From positions 2,255 through 66,254 of the forward strand of contig CACHBB010000004.1 in assembly GCA_902577945.1 (NCBI GenBank): DNA of 64,000 nt, written 5' to 3'. A model generated the notes under the pieces. That model was not told where the DNA came from. It was given only the letters and a program-made list of their open reading frames with translations, and did not search any database. This document shows positions 24,767 through 47,143 of this stretch, piece by piece (within the stretch, counting starts at the first letter, position 1; the number at the start of each line of letters is the position of its first letter). The translations under genes were made by a program, and so were the position numbers. This stretch comes from an uncultured Alphaproteobacteria bacterium. GTDB lineage: Bacteria > Pseudomonadota > Alphaproteobacteria > HIMB59 > GCA-002718135.

Positions 24767-25903
24767 TTAGTTTACTCTTTTGCCTTTAATATAAACTTCT
24801 TTGATTAACGGTGTATTTTCTACAAAGGCAACTCTAAGAAAATCCGATCTTTTATTAATTTCAATGTGACCCCTGTCATCTAAACCAACTGAATTTGCTG
24901 GATTATAAGAAACTAATTTAGTAGATTCACTTAAATTCACACCTTTATGTAATAATTTAAATACAGATTGTATTAGACTCAAAGGAACATAATCAGATGA
25001 AAATATATCAACTAAATCAAAGTTGTTATCCACTAAATCATTTACCGAAACATTATCCGAGTGTGATTTATTTCTTATAAAATTTGGAGCACCTAAAACT
25101 GTTTTCATTTTGAGTTTTTTTGCTTGTTTAACAGCTTCTAAGGTAGTTGGAAATTCACTAATATAAATTCCATTTTTGCTTGCTTCATTTACATGTTCTT
25201 CTGTCGTATCATCGTGAGAAGCCATAATAATTTTTTTCTCTCTCCATATTGTTGATACTTTTGGTCTATTCTTTTTTTCTGCTTCTTTTGCCGTTTCCTC
25301 TAGTCTTAACATTTTTTCATCAAAATCATATGCACCATGGGATGTAAAATTACTTCCTTTACCGTAAAATTCTAGCATTTTTTCTTTATTTCTCCATTGT
25401 CTCTGTCCAGGAGTATGATCCATTAAAGAAGCTAATGCTATATATTTGTTATCATAGTATTTTTCTAATGTTTCTAAGAGCTCAGGATCAGATAATTCAC
25501 ATCTATAGTGAAGATGGTGATCAGCTTTGAATAAACCTAAATCCTTACCTCTGGTAATCGAAGTTATTATATCATCCAAAATACTTGTTCTAATTTTTGT
25601 ATAGTTTCCAACTAATATTGCATCAAAAACCGTTGTTATACCAGAAGAAATAATTTCATTATCATTAGCTATTGCAGCTGCAATTTTATTAGGCCAAATT
25701 GCATTTGGTCTAGGAATAAAATGTTTTTCTAAGTTATCTGTATGAAGCTCTATAAATCCTGGTAATAAATAATCACCTTCAAAATCAATTGCATTAGAGT
25801 TATTTAAATTACCCTTATCAATGTTTAAAATTGTTTCATCAAAATTTATTGAGCCAATAAAAGTATCATTTAAAGTAACTATATTTGCATTTTTAATTAT
25901 CAT
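24767..25903 (-). CDS. phnM: alpha-D-ribose 1-methylphosphonate 5-triphosphate diphosphatase
   Basis: PGFIELHTDNLE, MDHTPGQRQ, ASHDD, SEFPTT, SSDYVP. Confidence 0.96.
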   Translation of the reverse strand: MIIKNANIVTLNDTFIGSINFDETILNIDKGNLNNSNAIDFEGDYLLPGFIELHTDNLEKHFIPRPNAIWPNKIAAAIANDNEIISSGITTVFDAILVGNYTKIRTSILDDIITSITRGKDLGLFKADHHLHYRCELSDPELLETLEKYYDNKYIALASLMDHTPGQRQWRNKEKMLEFYGKGSNFTSHGAYDFDEKMLRLEETAKEAEKKNRPKVSTIWREKKIIMASHDDTTEEHVNEASKNGIYISEFPTTLEAVKQAKKLKMKTVLGAPNFIRNKSHSDNVSVNDLVDNNFDLVDIFSSDYVPLSLIQSVFKLLHKGVNLSESTKLVSYNPANSVGLDDRGHIEINKRSDFLRVAFVENTPLIKEVYIKGKRVN

Positions 25904-26588
25904 TTGGAATGTATTTTTCTAAATTAATTTCTCTTGTACATATTTCATTTCTAATTTTTTTATCATGAACTATAACTATTATTGTTACATCTTTTTTAAG
26001 TTTTGATTTAATCATATCAATGACGATGGATTTATTAATATCATCGAGAGATGCTGTTGGCTCATCTAATAAAAGAATAGAATAATTCCCAATTAATGTT
26101 TTAGCTAAATTTACTCGTTGTTGTTCACCTCCAGAAAAAGTCAATGGTGATAAATTCCACATAGATTCTTGTATATTTAATTCAGATAAAAGTTTTTTTA
26201 TTTTTATTAATGAGTGTTCATCAAATAAAGACTGTTGTTTTAGAGTATCAGATACTATTTCAATTGTTGGAACCCTAGGCAAAACTCTTAAAAACTGACT
26301 TACATATCCAATGAAATATTTACGAAGATTTATTATTTGATGTTCTAATGAATTAGCAATATTGATTTTATTATTATTATAAATATTAATTTCACCTGAA
26401 GATGGTAAATAATTTCCATATAACATTTTTAAAAATGTAGATTTACCAATTCCAGATTTTCCAACTAGCGCAATACATTCTCCTGTCTTTATTTCTAAAT
26501 TAATATTTTTTAAAACATTTAATACGGTGCCCTTCTGATTATGCAGAATAAATTTCTTATTAACGTTTTTTAATTCGATAATTTTCAT
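25893..26588 (-). CDS. phnL: C-P lyase system ATPase PhnL
   Basis: FILHNQ, GKSGIGKST, GYVSQFLRVLPRV, TFSGGEQQRVN. Confidence 0.95.
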   Translation of the reverse strand: MKIIELKNVNKKFILHNQKGTVLNVLKNINLEIKTGECIALVGKSGIGKSTFLKMLYGNYLPSSGEINIYNNNKINIANSLEHQIINLRKYFIGYVSQFLRVLPRVPTIEIVSDTLKQQSLFDEHSLIKIKKLLSELNIQESMWNLSPLTFSGGEQQRVNLAKTLIGNYSILLLDEPTASLDDINKSIVIDMIKSKLKKDVTIIVIVHDKKIRNEICTREINLEKYIPNDN

Positions 26589-26590
26589 TA

Positions 26591-27367
26591 TTAAACTTGT
26601 AAAATAGATGAAGTTAAAAGCTGTGTGTAGGAATGTTGAGGATCATCCAAAACTCTATCTGTTAATCCTGTTTCTACAACTATGCCATCTTTCATAACCA
26701 ATAATTTATCAGTTAAAAATCGCACAACTGCTAAATCGTGTGTTACTATAATCATAGTAACATTAATATCTCTTACAATACTCTTAATAGTATCTAGTAT
26801 TTTAGCTTGTACAGACACATCCAACCCCCCTGTTGGCTCATCCATAAACACTATCTGCGGGTTTGATGATAATATTTTTGATATTTGAAGTCTTTGCTGC
26901 ATTCCGCCTGAAAAACTTAAAGGAAATTCATCAATTCTATCTGAATCCATCTCAGTTTTTTCCATCCAATATTTTCCAGTATTTCTTAAAAATGAATAGT
27001 TTTTTTCAGATACATTGAGAAGTCTCTCTGCAATGTTACCTCCAGCACTAATTCTTAAATTTAAACCATCTCTTGGATTTTGATGAACTATTCCCCACAT
27101 GGATCTCATCAATTGTCTTTTTTCTTGTTCAGGTAGAGAAAGAAAGTCTTTTACACCCCCTTGATCTAGCGATATGTTAATTTTTCCTGCAGATGGAGAA
27201 ATTTCTCCTGACAAGCACTTCAACAGTGTACTTTTACCTGAACCAGATTCACCAACAATGCCTAAAATTTCACCTTTATACAAATCAAAATTTATACCTT
27301 TGCAACCAATTTGGTTTCCATAAAAATGTGTAAGGTTTTCCACATGCATTATTTTTTTAATATTCAT
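26591..27367 (-). CDS. phnK: C-P lyase system ATPase PhnK
   Basis: GESGSGKST, VHQNPRDGL, FSGGMQQRLQI, DEPTGGLDVSVQA. Confidence 0.96.
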   Translation of the reverse strand: MNIKKIMHVENLTHFYGNQIGCKGINFDLYKGEILGIVGESGSGKSTLLKCLSGEISPSAGKINISLDQGGVKDFLSLPEQEKRQLMRSMWGIVHQNPRDGLNLRISAGGNIAERLLNVSEKNYSFLRNTGKYWMEKTEMDSDRIDEFPLSFSGGMQQRLQISKILSSNPQIVFMDEPTGGLDVSVQAKILDTIKSIVRDINVTMIIVTHDLAVVRFLTDKLLVMKDGIVVETGLTDRVLDDPQHSYTQLLTSSILQV

Positions 27368-28200
27368 TTATTTTTCTCAAGATTGCTTTTACAAAAATCT
27401 GTATCTGAACATATAAAATTTTTCTTTCCCTCATTATTGATAATTATTTCATCTAAGTAACTCTTCGTTGAACCACATATTGAACAACATTCATCCCATG
27501 TTTGTATTTCAAAGGGATGATCATCAAAATCAAGACTTTTAACTTTAGTGTAAGGTGGAATTGCGTAAATTCTTTTTTCTCTTCCTGCGCCAAATAATTG
27601 CAACGCTTCCATATTATTCATTTTGGGATTATCAAATTTAGGTATTGGTGTTGGATCAGTAATATATCTGTTATTTGTTTCTACTGGATAAGCCCAAGTT
27701 TTTATTACTGAGCCAAATTGAGAAATTTCTTCGTATAATTTTACATGCATTAATGCATATTCTTTATACGCATGGAGTTTTCTAGTTTCTTTTTCTTTAG
27801 GCTCTAATTTCCTTAGTGGTTCTGGTTGAGGAACTTGATAAACAATGATTTGATCTTTATTTAATGTTGTTTCAGGAATTCGATGTCTAGTTTGTATCAA
27901 GGATGCTTCTGCAGTTCTATCTGTAGTCATGATATTGCATACACGTTTAAAAAAATTTTTAATAGAAACAGCATTAGTAGTATCATCAGCACCCTGATCA
28001 ATTACTTTTAGAATATCTTGCTTACCAATTATAGAAGCTGTAACCTGGATACCTCCTGTTCCCCATCCATATGCTAATGGCATTTCTCTTCCTCCAAATG
28101 GACATTGATAGCCTGGAATGCAAACAGCTTTTAGAATTTTTCTCCTTATCATTCTTTTAGTTGCTTCATCCAAATACGCAAAATTAAAACCAGTTTTCAT
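27364..28200 (-). CDS. phnJ: C-P lyase catalytic radical-SAM subunit
   Basis: FAYLDE.TKRMIRR, PFGGREMP, GWGTGG, C-terminal CSIC...CSDTDFC. Confidence 0.98.
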   Translation of the reverse strand: MKTGFNFAYLDEATKRMIRRKILKAVCIPGYQCPFGGREMPLAYGWGTGGIQVTASIIGKQDILKVIDQGADDTTNAVSIKNFFKRVCNIMTTDRTAEASLIQTRHRIPETTLNKDQIIVYQVPQPEPLRKLEPKEKETRKLHAYKEYALMHVKLYEEISQFGSVIKTWAYPVETNNRYITDPTPIPKFDNPKMNNMEALQLFGAGREKRIYAIPPYTKVKSLDFDDHPFEIQTWDECCSICGSTKSYLDEIIINNEGKKNFICSDTDFCKSNLEKNK

Positions 28201-29285
28201 AATTTTTTTCCCTGCAGAATTTCATTTCTAAGTTTTCGAATAAGGTTTAGTTCTCCTTGAAAGTCAACATAATGAGGAAGTTTTAGATGTGTTACAAATC
28301 CTTGTGCCTCAACATTGTCAGCATGATAGAGAACAAATTCTTGATCTTGAATTGGGAATTTGATTTCTTCACCGTACCCTTCACTCTTTAATGCTCTATC
28401 CACAATAGAAATAGCCATGGATTTTCTTTCATTATAGCCAAATGTTAAACCATAACCTCTCGTAAATTGGGGCGGGGTATTTTTATTTCCTGCAAATTGA
28501 TCTATCATTTGACATTCAGAGATTTCAATTTCGCCAATACAAATTTCAAAACCTAATTCATCTGGTGAAATAAAAATATCAACAATACCGTATTTAATTT
28601 CTCCAACAAAAGGATGAGTTCCTTTACTTCCAAATCCCCTAATAGCAGAATAAGATAAACCTAGAAGAAAACCCTCATCACCCCTAGCTAGTATTTGCAT
28701 CCATTGATCTCTGGATGCAGGAAATTTCATAGGATCTCTCGTAACATCAAATGGATTATCATTTAAATTGTTAATTTCCTGCTCTAATAAATTCTCATTA
28801 TTAAGATAATCAATAACACTAGGAAATTCTTTATTTTTAGGTTCTTGGTTATTGATGTTTTCATATGAATTTATCTCATCTTCTTTCATTAGAGAAAAAT
28901 CTAATAATCTGTGAGAATAATCAAATGTTGGGCCAAGTATTTGTCCGCCCGGTATATCTTTAAAACTTGCAGATATTCTTCTTTTTATAATAATTTTGCT
29001 TGTATCTATAGCAGTTGAGTAAGCATATCTTTCTAAAGTGGTTCTATAAGCTCTCAATAAAAAAATTGCCTCGACCAAATCTCCTTGAGATTGTTTTATT
29101 GCTAAAGCAGATAAATCTTTATCATATAATGAACCTTCATTAATTACTCTATCAACTGCAAAACTTAGTTGTTCTTTAATTTGATTTATCTCAATACTTT
29201 TAGTGCCAGTTTCTTTTCTTTTTTTCTCTAAAAGTTTCAATGAGCTTTTGATTGCTTTTTCCCCTCCTTTTACTGCTACATACAT
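28197..29285 (-). CDS. phnI: C-P lyase complex subunit PhnI
   Basis: MYVAVKGGEKAI, EAIFLLRAYRTTL, GFVTHLKLPHYVDFQ. Confidence 0.98.
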   Translation of the reverse strand: MYVAVKGGEKAIKSSLKLLEKKRKETGTKSIEINQIKEQLSFAVDRVINEGSLYDKDLSALAIKQSQGDLVEAIFLLRAYRTTLERYAYSTAIDTSKIIIKRRISASFKDIPGGQILGPTFDYSHRLLDFSLMKEDEINSYENINNQEPKNKEFPSVIDYLNNENLLEQEINNLNDNPFDVTRDPMKFPASRDQWMQILARGDEGFLLGLSYSAIRGFGSKGTHPFVGEIKYGIVDIFISPDELGFEICIGEIEISECQMIDQFAGNKNTPPQFTRGYGLTFGYNERKSMAISIVDRALKSEGYGEEIKFPIQDQEFVLYHADNVEAQGFVTHLKLPHYVDFQGELNLIRKLRNEILQGKKL

Positions 29286-29857
29286 TATTTTAACACCTTT
29301 GATGTTCGTGGCAGACAGAAAAAATCATCTTTACACGTAAGAATTAAGTCGACACCTCTTGGAAAAATAAAATTATTATTTTGCCATTGAGATTGAAAAT
29401 TTTTAGGTAAATTAGTTGGGGATATTGATTTTGTTTTTTCAATACCAGGACCTTCAATTATTAATTCTTCACCGTTAATCAGATCTTCAACTTCAATAAT
29501 TATCGTGGATGAGTTGTCAGGATATTCATCTGAGCCAAGATTAAAATTTTCAATATTAAATTCCTTATTTTGAATAATTGCAAAGTCACAATGATTAGAT
29601 TTTTCTATACAATTTGCATTTGTGTTGAATGTTATAAAGTTTTGTATTTTTGATATCTTTTCAGAATCTATAAAAATTTTAGTATCAATATCAAATAACG
29701 TAAAAATAATATTAGCTGTTGAAGAATAAAGAACATTATCTGTTTCAAGATTTTCTGGAACTGTGAATATAGATCCAGGAAAAGAGGTTGCTTTTAAAAT
29801 TGTTCTAAACATATTTTGTGATGAATGTGTTTGATCTTGATATCCAATATATTCCAT
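29285..29857 (-). CDS. phnH: C-P lyase complex subunit PhnH
   Basis: SQNMFR..L.A...PG, GSDEYPD.S.T, GPGI, FPRGVD, LPRT. Confidence 0.93.
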   Translation of the reverse strand: MEYIGYQDQTHSSQNMFRTILKATSFPGSIFTVPENLETDNVLYSSTANIIFTLFDIDTKIFIDSEKISKIQNFITFNTNANCIEKSNHCDFAIIQNKEFNIENFNLGSDEYPDNSSTIIIEVEDLINGEELIIEGPGIEKTKSISPTNLPKNFQSQWQNNNFIFPRGVDLILTCKDDFFCLPRTSKVLK

Positions 29858-30297
29858 TATCCATCACCTCTCACTAGTGTAAAGAAATCAACTTTTGATG
29901 AGTTACTTTCATTAATAATGTGATTTTCTTTTTTATTAATTTTATCTTTTAAATCTAAAATCATACTTTGAAGTTTAGAATAATAATTATTATCTTGCAT
30001 TAAAGCATCTAAAACTGCTGCATACTCAGCTCTAATTTTATCTCTACCTAGATGATACGAATAACCAGTTGTTCCTTCTTCTAATTTTATGACACATTTA
30101 GTTAATGTTGCTTCGCCTAGATTATAAGGATCTCCATTACCTCCTAATCTTGCCCTTATCATGATCGACCCAACATTTGGTCCGTAAATTATTTTATAAT
30201 CTTTAGTATAATTTATATTTTCAATACAATTTTTTAAATCTATTGTTTCTGTTTTTGACAAAATAGAAATCCAATCTTTTCTTTGTATTTCAGACAT
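29857..30297 (-). CDS. phnG: C-P lyase complex subunit PhnG
   Basis: RKDWISILS, R.GG.G.PYNLGEATLTKC, GYSY.LGRD, KVDFFTLVRGD. Confidence 0.95.
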   Translation of the reverse strand: MSEIQRKDWISILSKTETIDLKNCIENINYTKDYKIIYGPNVGSIMIRARLGGNGDPYNLGEATLTKCVIKLEEGTTGYSYHLGRDKIRAEYAAVLDALMQDNNYYSKLQSMILDLKDKINKKENHIINESNSSKVDFFTLVRGDG

Positions 30298-31531: not shown

Positions 31532-31876
31532 ATGAATTTAGGAGAAAAATTTGCTGAAGTATTTTTTAATTACACTGGTGAAACAAATGATGAAACACTT
31601 TCTTCTCTATTAGCAGATGATTTTATTTGGGAAACTATAACAAAAGCAAGGATTAATGATAAAATTTATGAAAACAAAGAAGAAACATTAAATACACTTG
31701 CACAAATTAAATCACCTCCTGATTGGAAAATTTTTTATAGTACTGATGAAATACTAGTTGCATCATTACAAACAATTGCTCCAACAGATAATACTAAAAG
31801 AGGATTAATCGTTTCAGTTTTATTTGAAAAAGGTAAAGCAATTAAAATGATTTCAGCAAATGGAGATGGAATATAA
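31532..31876 (+). CDS. NTF2/SnoaL-like small protein
   Basis: LSSLLADDFIW, IFYSTDEILV, FEKGKAIK; distantly similar to the upstream gene; SD AAGGAG. Confidence 0.6.
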   Translation: MNLGEKFAEVFFNYTGETNDETLSSLLADDFIWETITKARINDKIYENKEETLNTLAQIKSPPDWKIFYSTDEILVASLQTIAPTDNTKRGLIVSVLFEKGKAIKMISANGDGI

Positions 31877-31898
31877 ACATTAAATATTAGGAATTCTT

Positions 31899-32168
31899 AT
31901 GAAAATTATTATGAATGTTAAATTAAAAGAAGGTTATGAAAAATGGAAAAATCTTTTTCTCAGTGTCGATACACATAGAGAAAAGTATGGAATAAAAGTT
32001 TTAGCATATGGCCATCCAAAAGATAATGAAAATAAAATTTATCAAGTTTTAGAGATTGAATCGATGGAAAAAATGCAAGAAGCAATGAAAGATCCAGAAT
32101 TAGCAAAACTTAGAACTGAGGCTGGTGTTGATTTGGATAGTCAAGAAATTGTTTTTTTAGTTGAGTAG
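31899..32168 (+). CDS. DUF3764-like small alpha/beta-barrel protein
   Basis: YEKWKNLF...REKYGIKVL..G...N.IY...MKDPE....R.EAGVD pattern. Confidence 0.6.
   Translation: MKIIMNVKLKEGYEKWKNLFLSVDTHREKYGIKVLAYGHPKDNENKIYQVLEIESMEKMQEAMKDPELAKLRTEAGVDLDSQEIVFLVE
32131..32168 (+). repeat. direct repeat copy 1 (3' end of DUF3764-like gene)
   Basis: ATTTGGATAGTCAAGAAATTGTTTTTTTAGTTGAGTAG; 35/38 identical to 33949-33986. Confidence 0.9.
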
Positions 32169-32228
32169 GTTTTAATTTTATAGAAAAAGATACGGTATGA
32201 ATTAAATATAATTAAAGACTTCTTCACT

Positions 32229-33272
32229 ATGGAAGCTTTTTTTTATATTATTATTTTAATATTAATGATTTTTTATCTTGTAACACCGCTGATATTGATT
32301 TTTTCAAGCTCTTTAGGCTTAATTATTGACCCTTTCTGGTCTATTTCACCATTTGTTTGGGTATTTATTCTAGTTCCCATTATTGATTTAGTTTTACCTT
32401 ATTTAAATAAGCAAGATGTCGATTTAGAAGAAAATATATTCCATAATTTTTCTATTTTGATTGTTCTTCCTTGTATTTTATTTCTAATAATTTTTGGTTT
32501 AATTGTTGTATCTAATCCTTCAATAACATTTTTAACTGCTGCTGCTTTAGGTGCAGCTGTTGGTATGTCAGGTGGTTCAATTGGTATTACAACAGCCCAT
32601 GAGCTAATTCATCGACAAAATAAATATATGCGAGGTATTGGTGTGTTATTATTAATTGTATGTTGCTATGGTCATTTTCGCATAGAGCATATTTATGGTC
32701 ATCACCGAAATGTTGCTACTAAAGAAGATCCAGCTACTGCTAGAAGAGGTGAAAATTTTTATTTTTATTTTGTTCGCTGTGTTATTAATAGTGTCATCTC
32801 TTCATGGAATATTGAAAAAAATATACTTTTAAAAAGAAATATAAATTTATTAAATATTCGAAACAGAATGTTGCATTATTTCGTATTAGAATTTTTATTT
32901 TTAATAATTTCTTTTTATATTGCTGGTATAAATGGACTAGTATTTGTTTTGTTTCACTCTTTTATTTCAATACTATTACTTGAGCTTGTTAATTACATTC
33001 AACATTATGGTTTAGAAAGAAAAATGGAAAATGGTAAATATGAAAAATTTACTGATCATCACTCATGGAATAGTCGTCATATATCCGCTAACTGGTCTAC
33101 ATTCAATTTAGGCCTGCATGCAGAACACCATCATAGAGCATCAAAACACTATCCTCTTTTATCACAAGAAGAAAAATCAGTAGAAATGCCTGCCAACTAT
33201 TCCATAATGTTAATAATGGCTTTAATTCCACCTTTATGGTTTTTTGTAATGGATAAAAAAATACATAATTAA
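32229..33272 (+). CDS. alkB: alkane 1-monooxygenase (AlkB family membrane di-iron enzyme)
   Basis: His boxes HELIH, EHIYGHH, NYIQHYG, LHAEHH; DPATARRGE, HHSWNS; N-terminal TM helices. Confidence 0.88.
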   Translation: MEAFFYIIILILMIFYLVTPLILIFSSSLGLIIDPFWSISPFVWVFILVPIIDLVLPYLNKQDVDLEENIFHNFSILIVLPCILFLIIFGLIVVSNPSITFLTAAALGAAVGMSGGSIGITTAHELIHRQNKYMRGIGVLLLIVCCYGHFRIEHIYGHHRNVATKEDPATARRGENFYFYFVRCVINSVISSWNIEKNILLKRNINLLNIRNRMLHYFVLEFLFLIISFYIAGINGLVFVLFHSFISILLLELVNYIQHYGLERKMENGKYEKFTDHHSWNSRHISANWSTFNLGLHAEHHHRASKHYPLLSQEEKSVEMPANYSIMLIMALIPPLWFFVMDKKIHN

Positions 33273-33291
33273 ATTACTATAGAAAACAATA

Positions 33292-33322
33292 AATAAGCGG
33301 GAAATTAATCCCGCTTTTATTT
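33292..33322. terminator. bidirectional intrinsic terminator
   Basis: AAGCGGGA-aattaa-TCCCGCTT stem with A/T tails between convergent genes. Confidence 0.75.
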
Positions 33323-33360
33323 TAATTAAAACAAGCGGCTATTAAAACGTTTGATATATA

Positions 33361-33792
33361 TTAATACCCCTCAAATATTGTTCTAATAATAATTAAAATT
33401 AATCCAACTAATGGGAACATAACTCCTCTAATATTAGGAGTAATTCCATAATTATTTACAAGATTAAAGTACCTAACTAATGAACTAATTAAAGCTATTG
33501 CAAAAAGCATAAATAAAAATGAATACCAAAACTTATATTGTACTACATTTTCTTCATAAGTATTCCCAGTAACATCAAAAGTTAATAATATTGACATTAA
33601 TAACATTGTTAAAAAAACAGCACCTAAAGGGCCTCTAAAAACTAACTTGGGTTCTTCATTTGAAAAACCTAATTCATTAAAAAATTTATTATTAAAATAA
33701 AACTGATAAATAATAAATAAATTAAAAAGCATAAATAAAACATGGAATGTAAATGCCATTGTTCCTCCAGCCTCTAAAATATATTGGGCCAT
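33361..33792 (-). CDS. 4-TM hypothetical membrane protein (paralog of 46742-47143)
   Basis: Four hydrophobic segments; AGG..F..HV, FN..F, GF, PLG motifs shared with the paralog; SD AAGGAG. Confidence 0.75.
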   Translation of the reverse strand: MAQYILEAGGTMAFTFHVLFMLFNLFIIYQFYFNNKFFNELGFSNEEPKLVFRGPLGAVFLTMLLMSILLTFDVTGNTYEENVVQYKFWYSFLFMLFAIALISSLVRYFNLVNNYGITPNIRGVMFPLVGLILIIIRTIFEGY

Positions 33793-33948
33793 AAAATCTC
33801 CTTTTTTAAAATAATTATAAAATTAATGATGATTCTTAATAAAAAACTATTAAAAAATTATGAATAAAAATATTTTAATCTAATTTAATTGCTGTTGAGA
33901 GTTATACTCTAGTTTTTGTACAGAAATTTCTAAATTTTCTATTAAATC

Positions 33949-33986
33949 ATTTAGATAGCCAAGAAATAGTTTTTTTAGTTGAGTAG
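33949..33986 (+). pseudogene. direct repeat copy 2: orphan 3' fragment (LDSQEIVFLVE*) of a DUF3764-like allele
   Basis: ATTTAGATAGCCAAGAAATAGTTTTTTTAGTTGAGTAG; three differences from copy 1, all at synonymous third positions; no upstream part of the gene is present. Confidence 0.85.
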
Positions 33987-34017
33987 ATTATAATTAAAAA
34001 ATAGAATATAATTAAAC

Positions 34018-34055
34018 GGGGTATAAAGCCCTCTCCACTGAGGGAGTTTTGCCCC
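34018..34055 (+). promoter_or_regulatory. GC-rich leader hairpin sequestering the putative SD of the 2OG-oxygenase gene
   Basis: GGGGTATAAAG-CCCTC-tccact-GAGGG-AGTTTTGCCCC directly abuts ATG 34056; GAGGGAG lies in the 3' arm. Confidence 0.55.
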
Positions 34056-34916
34056 ATGATAAATATGAAAATACAAGAAGAAAATATTAGTTATTTTATT
34101 AATCTTGATAAATTTCCTATACACGAACCTCAAAGTTCAAAATATCAAACAATTGTAAAAGAAGCACGTGAAGCACTAGATTATGATGGTTGCTATGTTT
34201 TGAAATCCATTGTTAATTCAAATGCAATTAAAGATATGCAACATGAAGCATCAAGTATTGAGAGTTTTGCGCATTATACATCTAATAAAGTAAATGTTTA
34301 CTTTAGTAAGGATGATCCATCGTATCCTAAAGACCATCCACGTCGTTTTTTTATGGAAAGAAGTAACGGATTTGTTTCAGGTGATAAATTTCCAGAAAAA
34401 TCCAAGATAAAAGATTTATATTATTCTGAAATACTAAAAAACTTTATTGCAGATTGTTTGGAAGTAAAAATGTATCACTATGCTGATCCTTTAGCTTCGC
34501 TAACAATAAATGTAAATAAACCAGGTGATCGTTTTTCTTGGCATTACGATACAAATGAATTTACTGTCACTATGCTTGTGCAAGATTGTGATAAAGGAGG
34601 TATATTTCAATACGTACCAAGTATTAGAAATAAAGATGATGAATGTTATGATGAAGTTCAAAAACTTCTTCATGGAGATACCTCAAAGATAAAAGAAATA
34701 AAACTTAATGAAGGTGATCTTCAATTATTTAAGGGTCGCTATGCACTTCACCGAGCAACTAGAGCAGAAGGAAATAAAACAAGAAATTTAGTTGTATTCA
34801 CATACACTGAAAAAGAAAACGTTATTGGCTCTACTTATAGAACAGAAGAGCTCTACGGCAAAACTCTTGACGTTCATAAACAGACAAAAGTTAGAAGTGA
34901 TAATTTAACAGATTAA
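34056..34916 (+). CDS. Fe(II)/2-oxoglutarate-dependent oxygenase (BesD/HalD-like fold, HxD hydroxylase type)
   Basis: FSWHYDTNEFTVT, GGIFQY, GDLQLFKGRYALHR, distal Arg (TRNLVVF). Confidence 0.8.
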   Translation: MINMKIQEENISYFINLDKFPIHEPQSSKYQTIVKEAREALDYDGCYVLKSIVNSNAIKDMQHEASSIESFAHYTSNKVNVYFSKDDPSYPKDHPRRFFMERSNGFVSGDKFPEKSKIKDLYYSEILKNFIADCLEVKMYHYADPLASLTINVNKPGDRFSWHYDTNEFTVTMLVQDCDKGGIFQYVPSIRNKDDECYDEVQKLLHGDTSKIKEIKLNEGDLQLFKGRYALHRATRAEGNKTRNLVVFTYTEKENVIGSTYRTEELYGKTLDVHKQTKVRSDNLTD

Positions 34917-45507: not shown

Positions 45508-46686
45508 ATGAGTGAGATCTATAATTATATTGATCAAAGTAAGTTGTCTGTTGTTTTAAAATCTATTGAACACGCTCATGGACTACCAAATGAATGTTAT
45601 CTTGAAGGTCCATACAATAAAATTGAAAGAAAAAAAATTTTTGAAAATAATTGGGTTGTTGTAGGAACTGCAAGTTCTATACCTGTTCCAGGTGATATAA
45701 AGTCATTCAATTTATTAGGTATACCATTAATTTTAGTAAGAGATAATAACTATAAAGTTAGAGTTTTCCATAATGTTTGTAGTCATAGAGGATACAAACT
45801 AATCAGCCAAGATTGTCATTTAAGAAAAGTTATTAAATGTCCTTATCATTCATGGTCTTATGATTTTACAGGTAAATTAGTTGCTACTCCACATATTGGT
45901 GGTGTCAATATTCATGATCATAATGATTTTAGAAAAGATGATAGCGGGTTAAAAGAAGTTAAATCAATAATTTGGTTGGATTTAATTATTGTTAATATTT
46001 CTAATGATGCAATTCCATTTAATGAATATATAAAGCCATTAGAAAAAAGATGGTCAACCTTTATTGCTAAAGAAGATTATAATTTAATTTACCATCCTAA
46101 AGATTATGGTTATTTTAATTTTGAAGCTAAGTGTAATTGGAAATTTGCTATTGAAAATTTTTGTGAAAGTTATCATCTACCTTTTGTGCATCCAAATCTT
46201 AACAAATACTCTAAAATTGATGATCATTATCATATTCAAGGCCTGCCTAATCGTTTTGCCGGTCAAGGAACATTAGTATACAATCCAAAATTTAAGAATA
46301 ATAAGTCATTTCCAAACTTTCCTAGTTGGCCAAGTAAAAAAGATAAGCAAGCAGAATATGTGGCATTATTTCCTAATGTAATGATAGGAATTCATAAAGA
46401 TCATTATTATGCTTTCTGGTTAGAGCCCATTAATCATGAAAAGACACTTGAGCATATGGAAATATATTATGTAGGAGAAGAAGCAGCTTTTTCAGATAAG
46501 TATAAAAATATTAGAGAAGAAAATTTTATTCAATGGAAAAATATAATGAGAGAAGATTTAGATATTATAGAAGGTATGCAAGAGGGAAGAAATTCTCCAG
46601 CTTATAATGGTGGAAATTTTTCACCTGCGCTTGATAATCCAACACACCATTTTGCGAAATGGGTTGCAAGTTCACTAATTAATTAA
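45508..46686 (+). CDS. Rieske non-heme iron oxygenase alpha subunit (choline monooxygenase / quaternary-amine group)
   Basis: Rieske motif CSHRG...CPYHSW; mononuclear Fe ligands ESYHLPFVHP and EDLDIIEGMQ. Confidence 0.88.
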   Translation: MSEIYNYIDQSKLSVVLKSIEHAHGLPNECYLEGPYNKIERKKIFENNWVVVGTASSIPVPGDIKSFNLLGIPLILVRDNNYKVRVFHNVCSHRGYKLISQDCHLRKVIKCPYHSWSYDFTGKLVATPHIGGVNIHDHNDFRKDDSGLKEVKSIIWLDLIIVNISNDAIPFNEYIKPLEKRWSTFIAKEDYNLIYHPKDYGYFNFEAKCNWKFAIENFCESYHLPFVHPNLNKYSKIDDHYHIQGLPNRFAGQGTLVYNPKFKNNKSFPNFPSWPSKKDKQAEYVALFPNVMIGIHKDHYYAFWLEPINHEKTLEHMEIYYVGEEAAFSDKYKNIREENFIQWKNIMREDLDIIEGMQEGRNSPAYNGGNFSPALDNPTHHFAKWVASSLIN

Positions 46687-46741: not shown

Positions 46742-47143
46742 ATGATAGAAACTGCTGGAGGAATGATTCCTTTCTTATGTCATGTTTTTTTAATTTTATT
46801 CGGAGGTTTCTTTGGCTTAAGTTTTGCTTTTAATAAAAACTTTGTCAAAAACAGTATAGGTTTTGAATCAAAAGATGCGATGTACATGGGAAGACCACTA
46901 GGCTTCTTAATGATAGGAGTTGTATTGATGCTAATAGCTACGTTATTTCAAATTGGTGATTTTAAATCACCCAATGAAGTAATCGGTATTATGTTTATTT
47001 TTACTATTATTGCTTTTTGTTACAATGTTGGAACAACATTAAAAATTTTTGAAAGTTTTGATGGAAAAGATTGGCCAATAAAGCATGCTATAAGACCATT
47101 AATACCAATGATAGTAATTATAATCAGATATTTTACTTTATAA
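46742..47143 (+). CDS. 4-TM hypothetical membrane protein (paralog of 33361-33792)
   Basis: AGGMIPFLCHV, FNKNF, IGF, RPLG; SD AGGAGG; followed by a terminator. Confidence 0.78.
   Translation: MIETAGGMIPFLCHVFLILFGGFFGLSFAFNKNFVKNSIGFESKDAMYMGRPLGFLMIGVVLMLIATLFQIGDFKSPNEVIGIMFIFTIIAFCYNVGTTLKIFESFDGKDWPIKHAIRPLIPMIVIIIRYFTL

Follow-up and report, generated by a model that had tools for sequence, protein, structure and literature searches.

A duplicated gene end behind alkB as a likely recombination scar in an integrase-free variable island of an uncultured HIMB59 bacterium

Genomic islands integrate into the 3' ends of transfer RNA (tRNA), transfer-messenger RNA (tmRNA) or protein genes, and such islands bring an integrase, have ends that are defined and use the same site again across many genomes; the tycheposons of Prochlorococcus are reportedly among the islands integrated at gene 3' ends. 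In the effector and immunity arrays that belong to Vibrio cholerae's type VI secretion system (T6SS), incoming modules are said to recombine at a conserved gene end and to push the old end downstream as a remnant, and the original work on homology-facilitated illegitimate recombination was reportedly carried out in Acinetobacter and pneumococcus. As outlined in PMC3240628, that process is an established route with one homologous and one illegitimate end. Flexible genomic islands of the HIMB59 lineage are described as lying at fixed positions between conserved border genes, with no insertion sequences, tRNA genes or integrase (Molina-Pardines et al. 2023, PMC10734472); the islands covered there are those for phosphate, phosphonate and lipopolysaccharide, and homologous recombination is proposed for them (PMC10734472). 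Here we analyse a window of 64,000 nucleotides (nt) from an uncultured HIMB59 bacterium (assembly GCA_902577945.1, contig CACHBB010000004.1, positions 2,255 to 66,254), in which the last 38 nt of a small, weakly DUF3764-like gene recur downstream, beyond a gene for an alkane 1-monooxygenase homologue (alkB) and shortly before a conserved hairpin. With moderate confidence we take this second copy to be the displaced original end of the small gene, left as a recombination scar in a hypervariable, integrase-free island.

The small gene (31899-32168, + strand) is intact, encodes 89 amino acids (aa) and forms the conserved left anchor of the variable region. Its last 38 nt (copy 1, 32131-32168, + strand) recur on the same strand at 33949-33986 (copy 2), 1818 nt downstream and identical at 35 of 38 positions, as the first-pass annotation had stated; a second 38-nt match was found in 0/100 dinucleotide shuffles, and BLAST lengthens the repeat to 47 nt (42/47, 89%), somewhat beyond its first description. 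In either delimitation, direct repeats of the 3' end of a target gene stand at both ends of the insert. The three differences, at 32135, 32141 and 32150, are silent, as that annotation also held, because both copies fit the same degenerate IUPAC coding pattern (L-D-[S/T]-Q-E-x-V-F-L-V-E-stop), copy 1 being translated as LDSQEIVFLVE-stop; the probability that three random changes are all silent is ~0.005. Likewise borne out is the presence of AATATAATTAAA on the 3' side of both copies, with 12/12 positions matching between the two spacers.

Copy 2, which is non-coding here, runs on into a native 3' spacer (33987-34017, + strand) and a 38-nt hairpin (34018-34055, + strand), and it is because of this continuity that we regard it as the displaced original end, the same arrangement being the common one. 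Among 43 hairpin-bearing sequences (relatives' loci and the window), 33 have the hairpin 27-33 nt (~31) past the stop codon of the small gene, and in this common state, with the small gene directly before the hairpin, a HalD-like gene never follows. The comparison drew on 116 genomes, relatives being represented by one genome per species, mostly incomplete (the window's genome, G000, comprises 1.2 Mb in 52 contigs), and on 59 loci around the small gene. Copy 2 shows the majority state of these relatives at all three differing sites (A in 55/59, C in 36/59 and A in 51/59), whereas copy 1, the working copy, has the minority state at each (1/59, 16/59 and 5/59), so that the silent-only differences call for selection on the working copy alone. 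Compared with the gene end of two sister species that also carry alkB here (G101 and G102), copy 2 is identical at 37/38 positions and copy 1 at 36/38. Of an nhmmer profile of the gene, only positions 233-270 align to copy 2, homology beginning abruptly at 233 with no trace upstream. Of the earlier proposal that the copies represent two separately selected alleles, the two-allele origin is supported and selection on both copies is not needed. The 3' spacers (32169-32216 and 33987-34017; 48 and 31 nt) show a weak likeness with insertions and deletions (p ~0.03), and because they differ by ~17 nt in length and are barely alignable, compared with 92% identity over the coding 38-mer, the likeliest origin of the two copies is from two alleles at this locus and not from a recent duplication within the genome. 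Each spacer also resembles the pre-hairpin spacer of relatives that carry an ATP-binding cassette (ABC) exporter at this place, hereafter ABC-type (p ~0.002 for 32169-32216 and ~0.012 for 33987-34017), and the spacer behind the small gene is 83% identical to its counterpart in G101 and G102.

The 1.8 kilobases (kb) between the copies form a mosaic of alkB, a terminator, an inverted membrane-gene piece and a transglutaminase-gene fragment. The first-pass annotation was right that alkB, a terminator for both strands and a membrane gene lie here without integrase or transposase: Pfam scans of 45 proteins (9 from the window, and 36 from the window and from relatives' cargo) found no integrase, transposase or recombinase. 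Its notion of an alkB cassette as the unit between the repeats could not be upheld, since the interval is made of pieces with truncated genes and alkB occupies the same place without a repeat in G101 and G102. The stretch behind the small gene (32169-32228, + strand) consists of its 3' spacer, whose first ~48 nt are, by the spacer alignments, a version of the pre-hairpin spacer, and a short alkB leader. The product of alkB (32229-33272, + strand) has full-length homology to a solved AlkB structure (8f6t_A, E 7.5e-53, residues 16-344) and contains the membrane desaturase domain (Pfam FA_desaturase, PF00487, 1.3e-29); the gene is 82-85% identical to its relatives at the nucleotide level, and comparison of the 3' ends shows that it diverges from them ~5 codons before the stop and lacks their terminal IDNLKTI-stop. 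At 33295-33316, within a 55-nt stretch (33262-33316) for which no convincing match was found in the genome or the loci, lies a G+C-rich hairpin, flanked on each side by T-runs, that scores as terminator-like on either strand.

It is followed by an inverted, displaced region of 561 nt (33317-33877, - strand), which holds an intact membrane gene (33361-33792, 143 aa) together with 85 nt of its native upstream sequence. This region is 86-90% identical to 11/11 relatives' loci, in inverted orientation, and its sharp ends, at 33317 and at 33877 (33877 in ten of the loci, 33854 in L128), support its reading as a displaced segment. In relatives the gene is located 16-36 kb downstream on the other strand, between homologues of window positions 45508-46686 and ~47160; this usual slot, 13 kb away, is occupied in the window by a 28%-identical homologue (46742-47143). 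The 143-aa protein has no Pfam match, and NCBIfam yielded no name for it, for alkB or for the small gene. Two distantly related small membrane genes have been swapped in this way, the usual occupant of the 46.7-kb slot (33361-33792) now lying inverted beside alkB; the homologue at present in that slot is located, in G067, G087, G044 and G081, in a region matching contig C7 of the window's own genome (~17.0-17.6 kb), and G103 has the same swapped slot. The last piece (33880-33946, - strand) is a 3'-terminal fragment of ~17-20 codons plus stop that aligns to the 3' end of a transglutaminase-like gene of 278 aa, which sits just right of the conserved hairpin in L036, L038 and L056; a tblastn search with the transglutaminase-like protein found no other trace of it in the genome. 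The fragment is joined to copy 2 with few shared letters at the junction (ATT(T)AGA), and the left neighbour of copy 2 is this piece of another gene and not the sequence found upstream of copy 1. Promoter-like sites are not in excess in the region (15 compared with 18.1 in shuffles); one match, TTGAGT-17-TAGAAT, spans copy 2 and its spacer (33979-34007). On the right of the conserved hairpin, the first cargo gene encodes a HalD-like Fe/2-oxoglutarate oxygenase (34056-34916, + strand; Pfam HalD, 2.6e-17), and HalD also directly follows the hairpin in G102, G015 and the metagenome contig L223.

Comparison across the genus supports this locus as a hot spot for variation in gene content. Within a conserved frame (GYD and small gene on one side, and EamA, alkB and an ion-channel gene on the other), 0-7.5 kb of differing cargo, consisting of metabolic and transport genes, are found. 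At least seven different genes directly adjoin the hairpin on its right (an EamA transporter, a GMC oxidoreductase, two polysaccharide-lyase-like genes, the transglutaminase-like gene, HalD and an unnamed gene), and three states occur on its left, namely nothing, a 3.5-kb MacB/ABC/HlyD exporter module (7 loci and G015) or alkB (window, G101 and G102). The two sides assort freely, the ABC module being combined with the GMC oxidoreductase, a polysaccharide-lyase-like gene (c33) or HalD. In G101 and G102 the small gene, spacer and alkB stand in the same order as in the window and are followed by a 95-nt filler and the hairpin; contig L223 reads alkB, 44 nt, hairpin and HalD, and has no small gene directly upstream of the hairpin. 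No copy of the gene end was detectable in G101, G102 or L223, by alignment against shuffles or, in the loci, by nhmmer. Relative to L223, alkB is 85% and HalD 93.5% identical; by itself this difference does not prove a recombination breakpoint, alkB being ~82% identical to all relatives. Differing content at a fixed position between conserved flanks, without hallmarks of mobile elements, is what was found here, and in this the locus is like the HIMB59 islands (PMC10734472); what sets the window apart from those islands, as far as they are described there (PMC10734472), is the stretch of varying content after the small gene, with its hairpin and a proposed illegitimate junction.

The conserved hairpin forms the pivot of the variable region. 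It is present in 52/116 genomes, none of which has it twice, and most of them agree at all 38 of its positions. Its structure consists of two stems with invariant internal loops (TATAAAG / AGTTTTG). Changes on both sides were found in 6/9 stem pairs, 94% of cells pair and 0/500 shuffles were as good, in a test on a small set of 12 hand-picked distinct variants with the structure taken from the consensus. These compensatory and G-U changes point to an RNA on the + strand; Rfam gave no credible match for the hairpin region. The locus is not an integron-like cassette array, no intI or other integrase being among the 45 proteins scanned and the hairpin occurring once per genome, never at every cassette boundary. 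In L078, L088 and L089 the hairpin is replaced, over the first ~80 nt after the small-gene stop, by a string like the 3' half of a tRNA (T-arm, acceptor-like), which in L089 holds repeated GGCTAAGG units; ARAGORN (tRNA, tmRNA) and Rfam called nothing in these strings, which may be the relic of an old attachment site.

For the displaced gene end we infer the following order of events. The recipient would have carried small gene, spacer, hairpin and HalD, and the donor, a differently organised version of the island, an intact small gene, spacer, alkB and the transglutaminase-like gene. The left crossover would have been homologous, in or upstream of the small gene, and the donor segment would have ended inside the transglutaminase-like gene, whose 3' fragment would have been joined illegitimately to the recipient's small gene, 38 nt before its stop, at ATT(T)AGA. 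The 561-nt inverted copy of the membrane gene would have entered between alkB and this fragment, in the same event or later, and would have clipped the last codons of alkB. The overall pattern would be that of homology-facilitated illegitimate recombination, and unrelated sequences are indeed fused at few shared bases beside a homologous flank, the upstream genes being 92-99.7% identical to relatives. Candidate parental joints exist in metagenome contigs: the alkB end joined to the 3' end of the transglutaminase gene (run X2, 33270 to 33896 with 38 letters between), the hairpin joined to the transglutaminase gene (X3), and the alkB end joined to the hairpin (X5, and also contig L223). The resulting scar would have no function of its own and would persist as something short and young, short duplicates being expected to outlast long ones, since homologous recombination would delete the latter. 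The hairpin may be under selection, as its conservation suggests, in which case the joins observed would be those that keep it.

Several points weigh against this account. The exact parents were not found, small gene, window-type spacer, hairpin and HalD in succession being absent from the sampled genomes and contigs: a 32-nt pattern of window-type spacer plus hairpin, used as an empty-site search, had 0 matches in metagenome contigs, and a search for the hairpin-HalD junction in them returned one contig, L223, with alkB upstream instead of the small gene. In each sequence with HalD, the left side of the hairpin is occupied by cargo. The microhomology at the right join is short, and exactly how far it reaches depends on an allele that the sample lacks. 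Both outer junctions of the window (gene-spacer-alkB and hairpin-HalD) recur in G101 and G102 around a different filler, so more than one event is needed. Homology-facilitated illegitimate recombination itself is documented, as far as the account in PMC3240628 goes, in bacteria with natural competence and in conjugation of E. coli. Lastly, a short string resembling the gene end, GGTYGAATATAG, stands before the spacer in ABC-type relatives; against shuffles it is not significant, and if it were a real remnant the process may be recurrent.

Among the other explanations, an assembly or amplification chimera is very unlikely, indeed scarcely credible. It could be suspected in that the relatives' assemblies are of the single-cell type, in which inverted chimeric joins are possible, and the membrane-gene piece is inverted; nevertheless no second copy of the membrane gene, as a possible chimera template, was found in the assembly, and every internal junction is bridged, with 0-2 differences, by contigs of public seawater metagenomes from separate studies. 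Contigs of run X2 span 33742-34057 (2 differences) and 33056-33466 (0 differences), a contig of X5 spans 33742-34045, and those of X3 span 32090-32573 and 33231-33466; one of the runs may be the source sample, but not all three studies can be. That copy 2 is instead the relic of a decayed second paralogue, once located at 33.9 kb, is highly improbable. The family does have paralogues, 55% identical in 17 genomes and 27-30% identical elsewhere, but in the 59 loci the 55%-identical ones always lie upstream of the small gene and never downstream, the 3' ends of paralogues are unlike copy 2, and copy 2 shares 92-97% identity with the orthologous gene end, while nothing upstream of it is homologous. 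The first-pass annotation had named relatives with a full second paralogue at 33.9 kb as the sign of such decay; no relative has one, and in none of the 59 loci do alkB and the hairpin enclose a second, full-length copy. Less far-fetched, and still improbable, is a duplication of gene end and spacer within the genome, by unequal crossing-over or slippage, followed by insertions and by silent changes in the working copy. Both copies are of the same allele class, being so close to the gene end of G101 and G102, and copy 2 keeps the majority state at the three sites, so all changes could lie in the selected copy. Spacers that differ by ~17 nt in length and align weakly are, however, too different for a young duplication in which an unselected 38-mer is free of private change, and a duplication does not account for the foreign gene fragment that stands left of copy 2 in place of the sequence upstream of copy 1.

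A further explanation, put forward by the first-pass annotation and doubtful in our judgement, is that gene end and spacer serve as a reusable landing pad, a homology or attachment site at which cassettes with their own copy insert additively through a Campbell-type single crossover; such cassettes, circular or linear, might regenerate the gene on insertion and displace the old end, as at tRNA genes. A single crossover is expected to leave repeats on the same strand, the left one inside an intact gene and the right one a displaced end followed by its native flank, as observed, and the three forms of cargo between gene and hairpin (none, MacB-type ABC exporter and alkB), the independent assortment of left and right cargo around the hairpin and the short gene-end-like string before the spacer in ABC-type loci fit it as well. 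Yet of 54 genomes with the coding gene end, G000 alone has two copies (reversed-pattern controls gave none), and reuse of the site with different cargo inside the same repeat was not met with in these 54 genomes or the 59 loci. By nhmmer, none of the 59 loci has another downstream gene-end remnant; candidate strings before the hairpin in ABC-type loci, G101, G102 and L223 (GGTYGAATATAG and TTGAATAA) were rejected as decayed remnants, scoring p 0.34-0.95 against shuffles over 29 gene ends with no nhmmer match. The supposed cassette contains truncated genes and a displaced chromosomal segment, no integrase is among the 45 proteins, and neither alkB at the site in G101 and G102 nor alkB directly before the hairpin in L223 is accompanied by a repeat; the reading of the small gene as a pad for additive cassettes is not supported. 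A phage or element origin was rejected too, the hairpin core and a degenerate gene-end pattern having 0 matches in viral contigs, in which gene end and hairpin are absent. Contigs of the four metagenome runs compared contain no excision or empty-site joint at the repeat, a weak point, as contigs drop rare forms and uncovered parts are uninformative; joints with sides of <30 letters were ignored, among them one (31839 to 33658) that skips 1818 nt by coincidence, outside the repeat. In a related and equally speculative form, the gene end, spacer and invariant hairpin might be an integrase-free docking module, with conserved homology arms and cargo swapped or added by host recombination, the duplicate being a rare intermediate caught in the act; if true, this would be a tRNA-independent counterpart of island attachment sites in streamlined marine bacteria.

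Read as the displaced end left by an illegitimate join, the locus can be set beside the systems introduced above. Like islands at gene 3' ends and the tycheposons, it begins with a target gene that is intact and ends with a partial, displaced copy of that gene's 3' end, in a streamlined marine genome; unlike them, it has no integrase, no reuse of the site in many genomes and no defined ends. With the T6SS arrays of V. cholerae it shares the persistence of a displaced gene end downstream as a remnant, whereas those arrays grow repeatedly and keep old immunity genes and the window has a single remnant and unrelated metabolic cargo. As in homology-facilitated illegitimate recombination, a join at a few bases would have added foreign DNA, which can leave a partial duplicate of the recipient (PMC3240628); in contrast to the experiments described there, with competent bacteria and E. 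coli conjugation, the process is here read from a scar in an uncultured lineage. How such varied gene islands are maintained in streamlined ocean bacteria that lack mobile elements has yet to be settled, and for HIMB59 islands homologous recombination between conserved flanks is the only process proposed so far in the account available (PMC10734472). The scar would be direct sequence evidence that illegitimate joins also build such islands and that pieces of the core genome, such as the membrane gene, can move into them, and it singles out the conserved hairpin as a pivot, to the left and right of which the cargo segments vary independently. In itself it is probably an ordinary by-product with no likely function, of moderate interest as evidence of illegitimate joining.

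The resemblance of the small gene to DUF3764 is a likeness only, the Pfam match scoring 18.7 bits against a gathering score of 24. Full-length matches with 73-97% aa identity occur in 53 other genomes (of 116). In two species the gene is truncated or broken by stop codons (G072, C1:146710-146975, and G020, C1:146172-146381), so it is not indispensable. In locus L069 (G084), a fragment of 57 nt located 802-746 nt upstream of the small gene's stop matches the 5' end of that gene (nhmmer E 7.9e-6) and is a second, independent scrap of it in another species. Five records titled SAR202 / Dehalococcoidia (L192, L193, L197, L198 and L200) encode proteins 72-75% identical to that of the small gene, through either an inter-phylum transfer or mis-binning of contigs.

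Upstream of the small gene, at a distance of 1.6 kb, the window carries the carbon-phosphorus (C-P) lyase genes phnG-M (24767-30297; PhnG by Pfam), whereas 0/59 relatives' loci have C-P lyase genes within 4 kb of the small gene. This cluster fits the flexible phosphonate island of HIMB59 as described (PMC10734472), and with C-P lyase genes upstream and cargo downstream, the GYD-SnoaL-DUF block lies between two variable regions. The SnoaL-like gene (31532-31876) is 99.7% identical at the nucleotide level to that of L013, from another species' genome, although most relatives lack it or have a DUF1330 gene in its stead, compared with 91.9% for the small gene and 92-97% for the flanking genes, and this identity suggests a recent recombination tract nearby.

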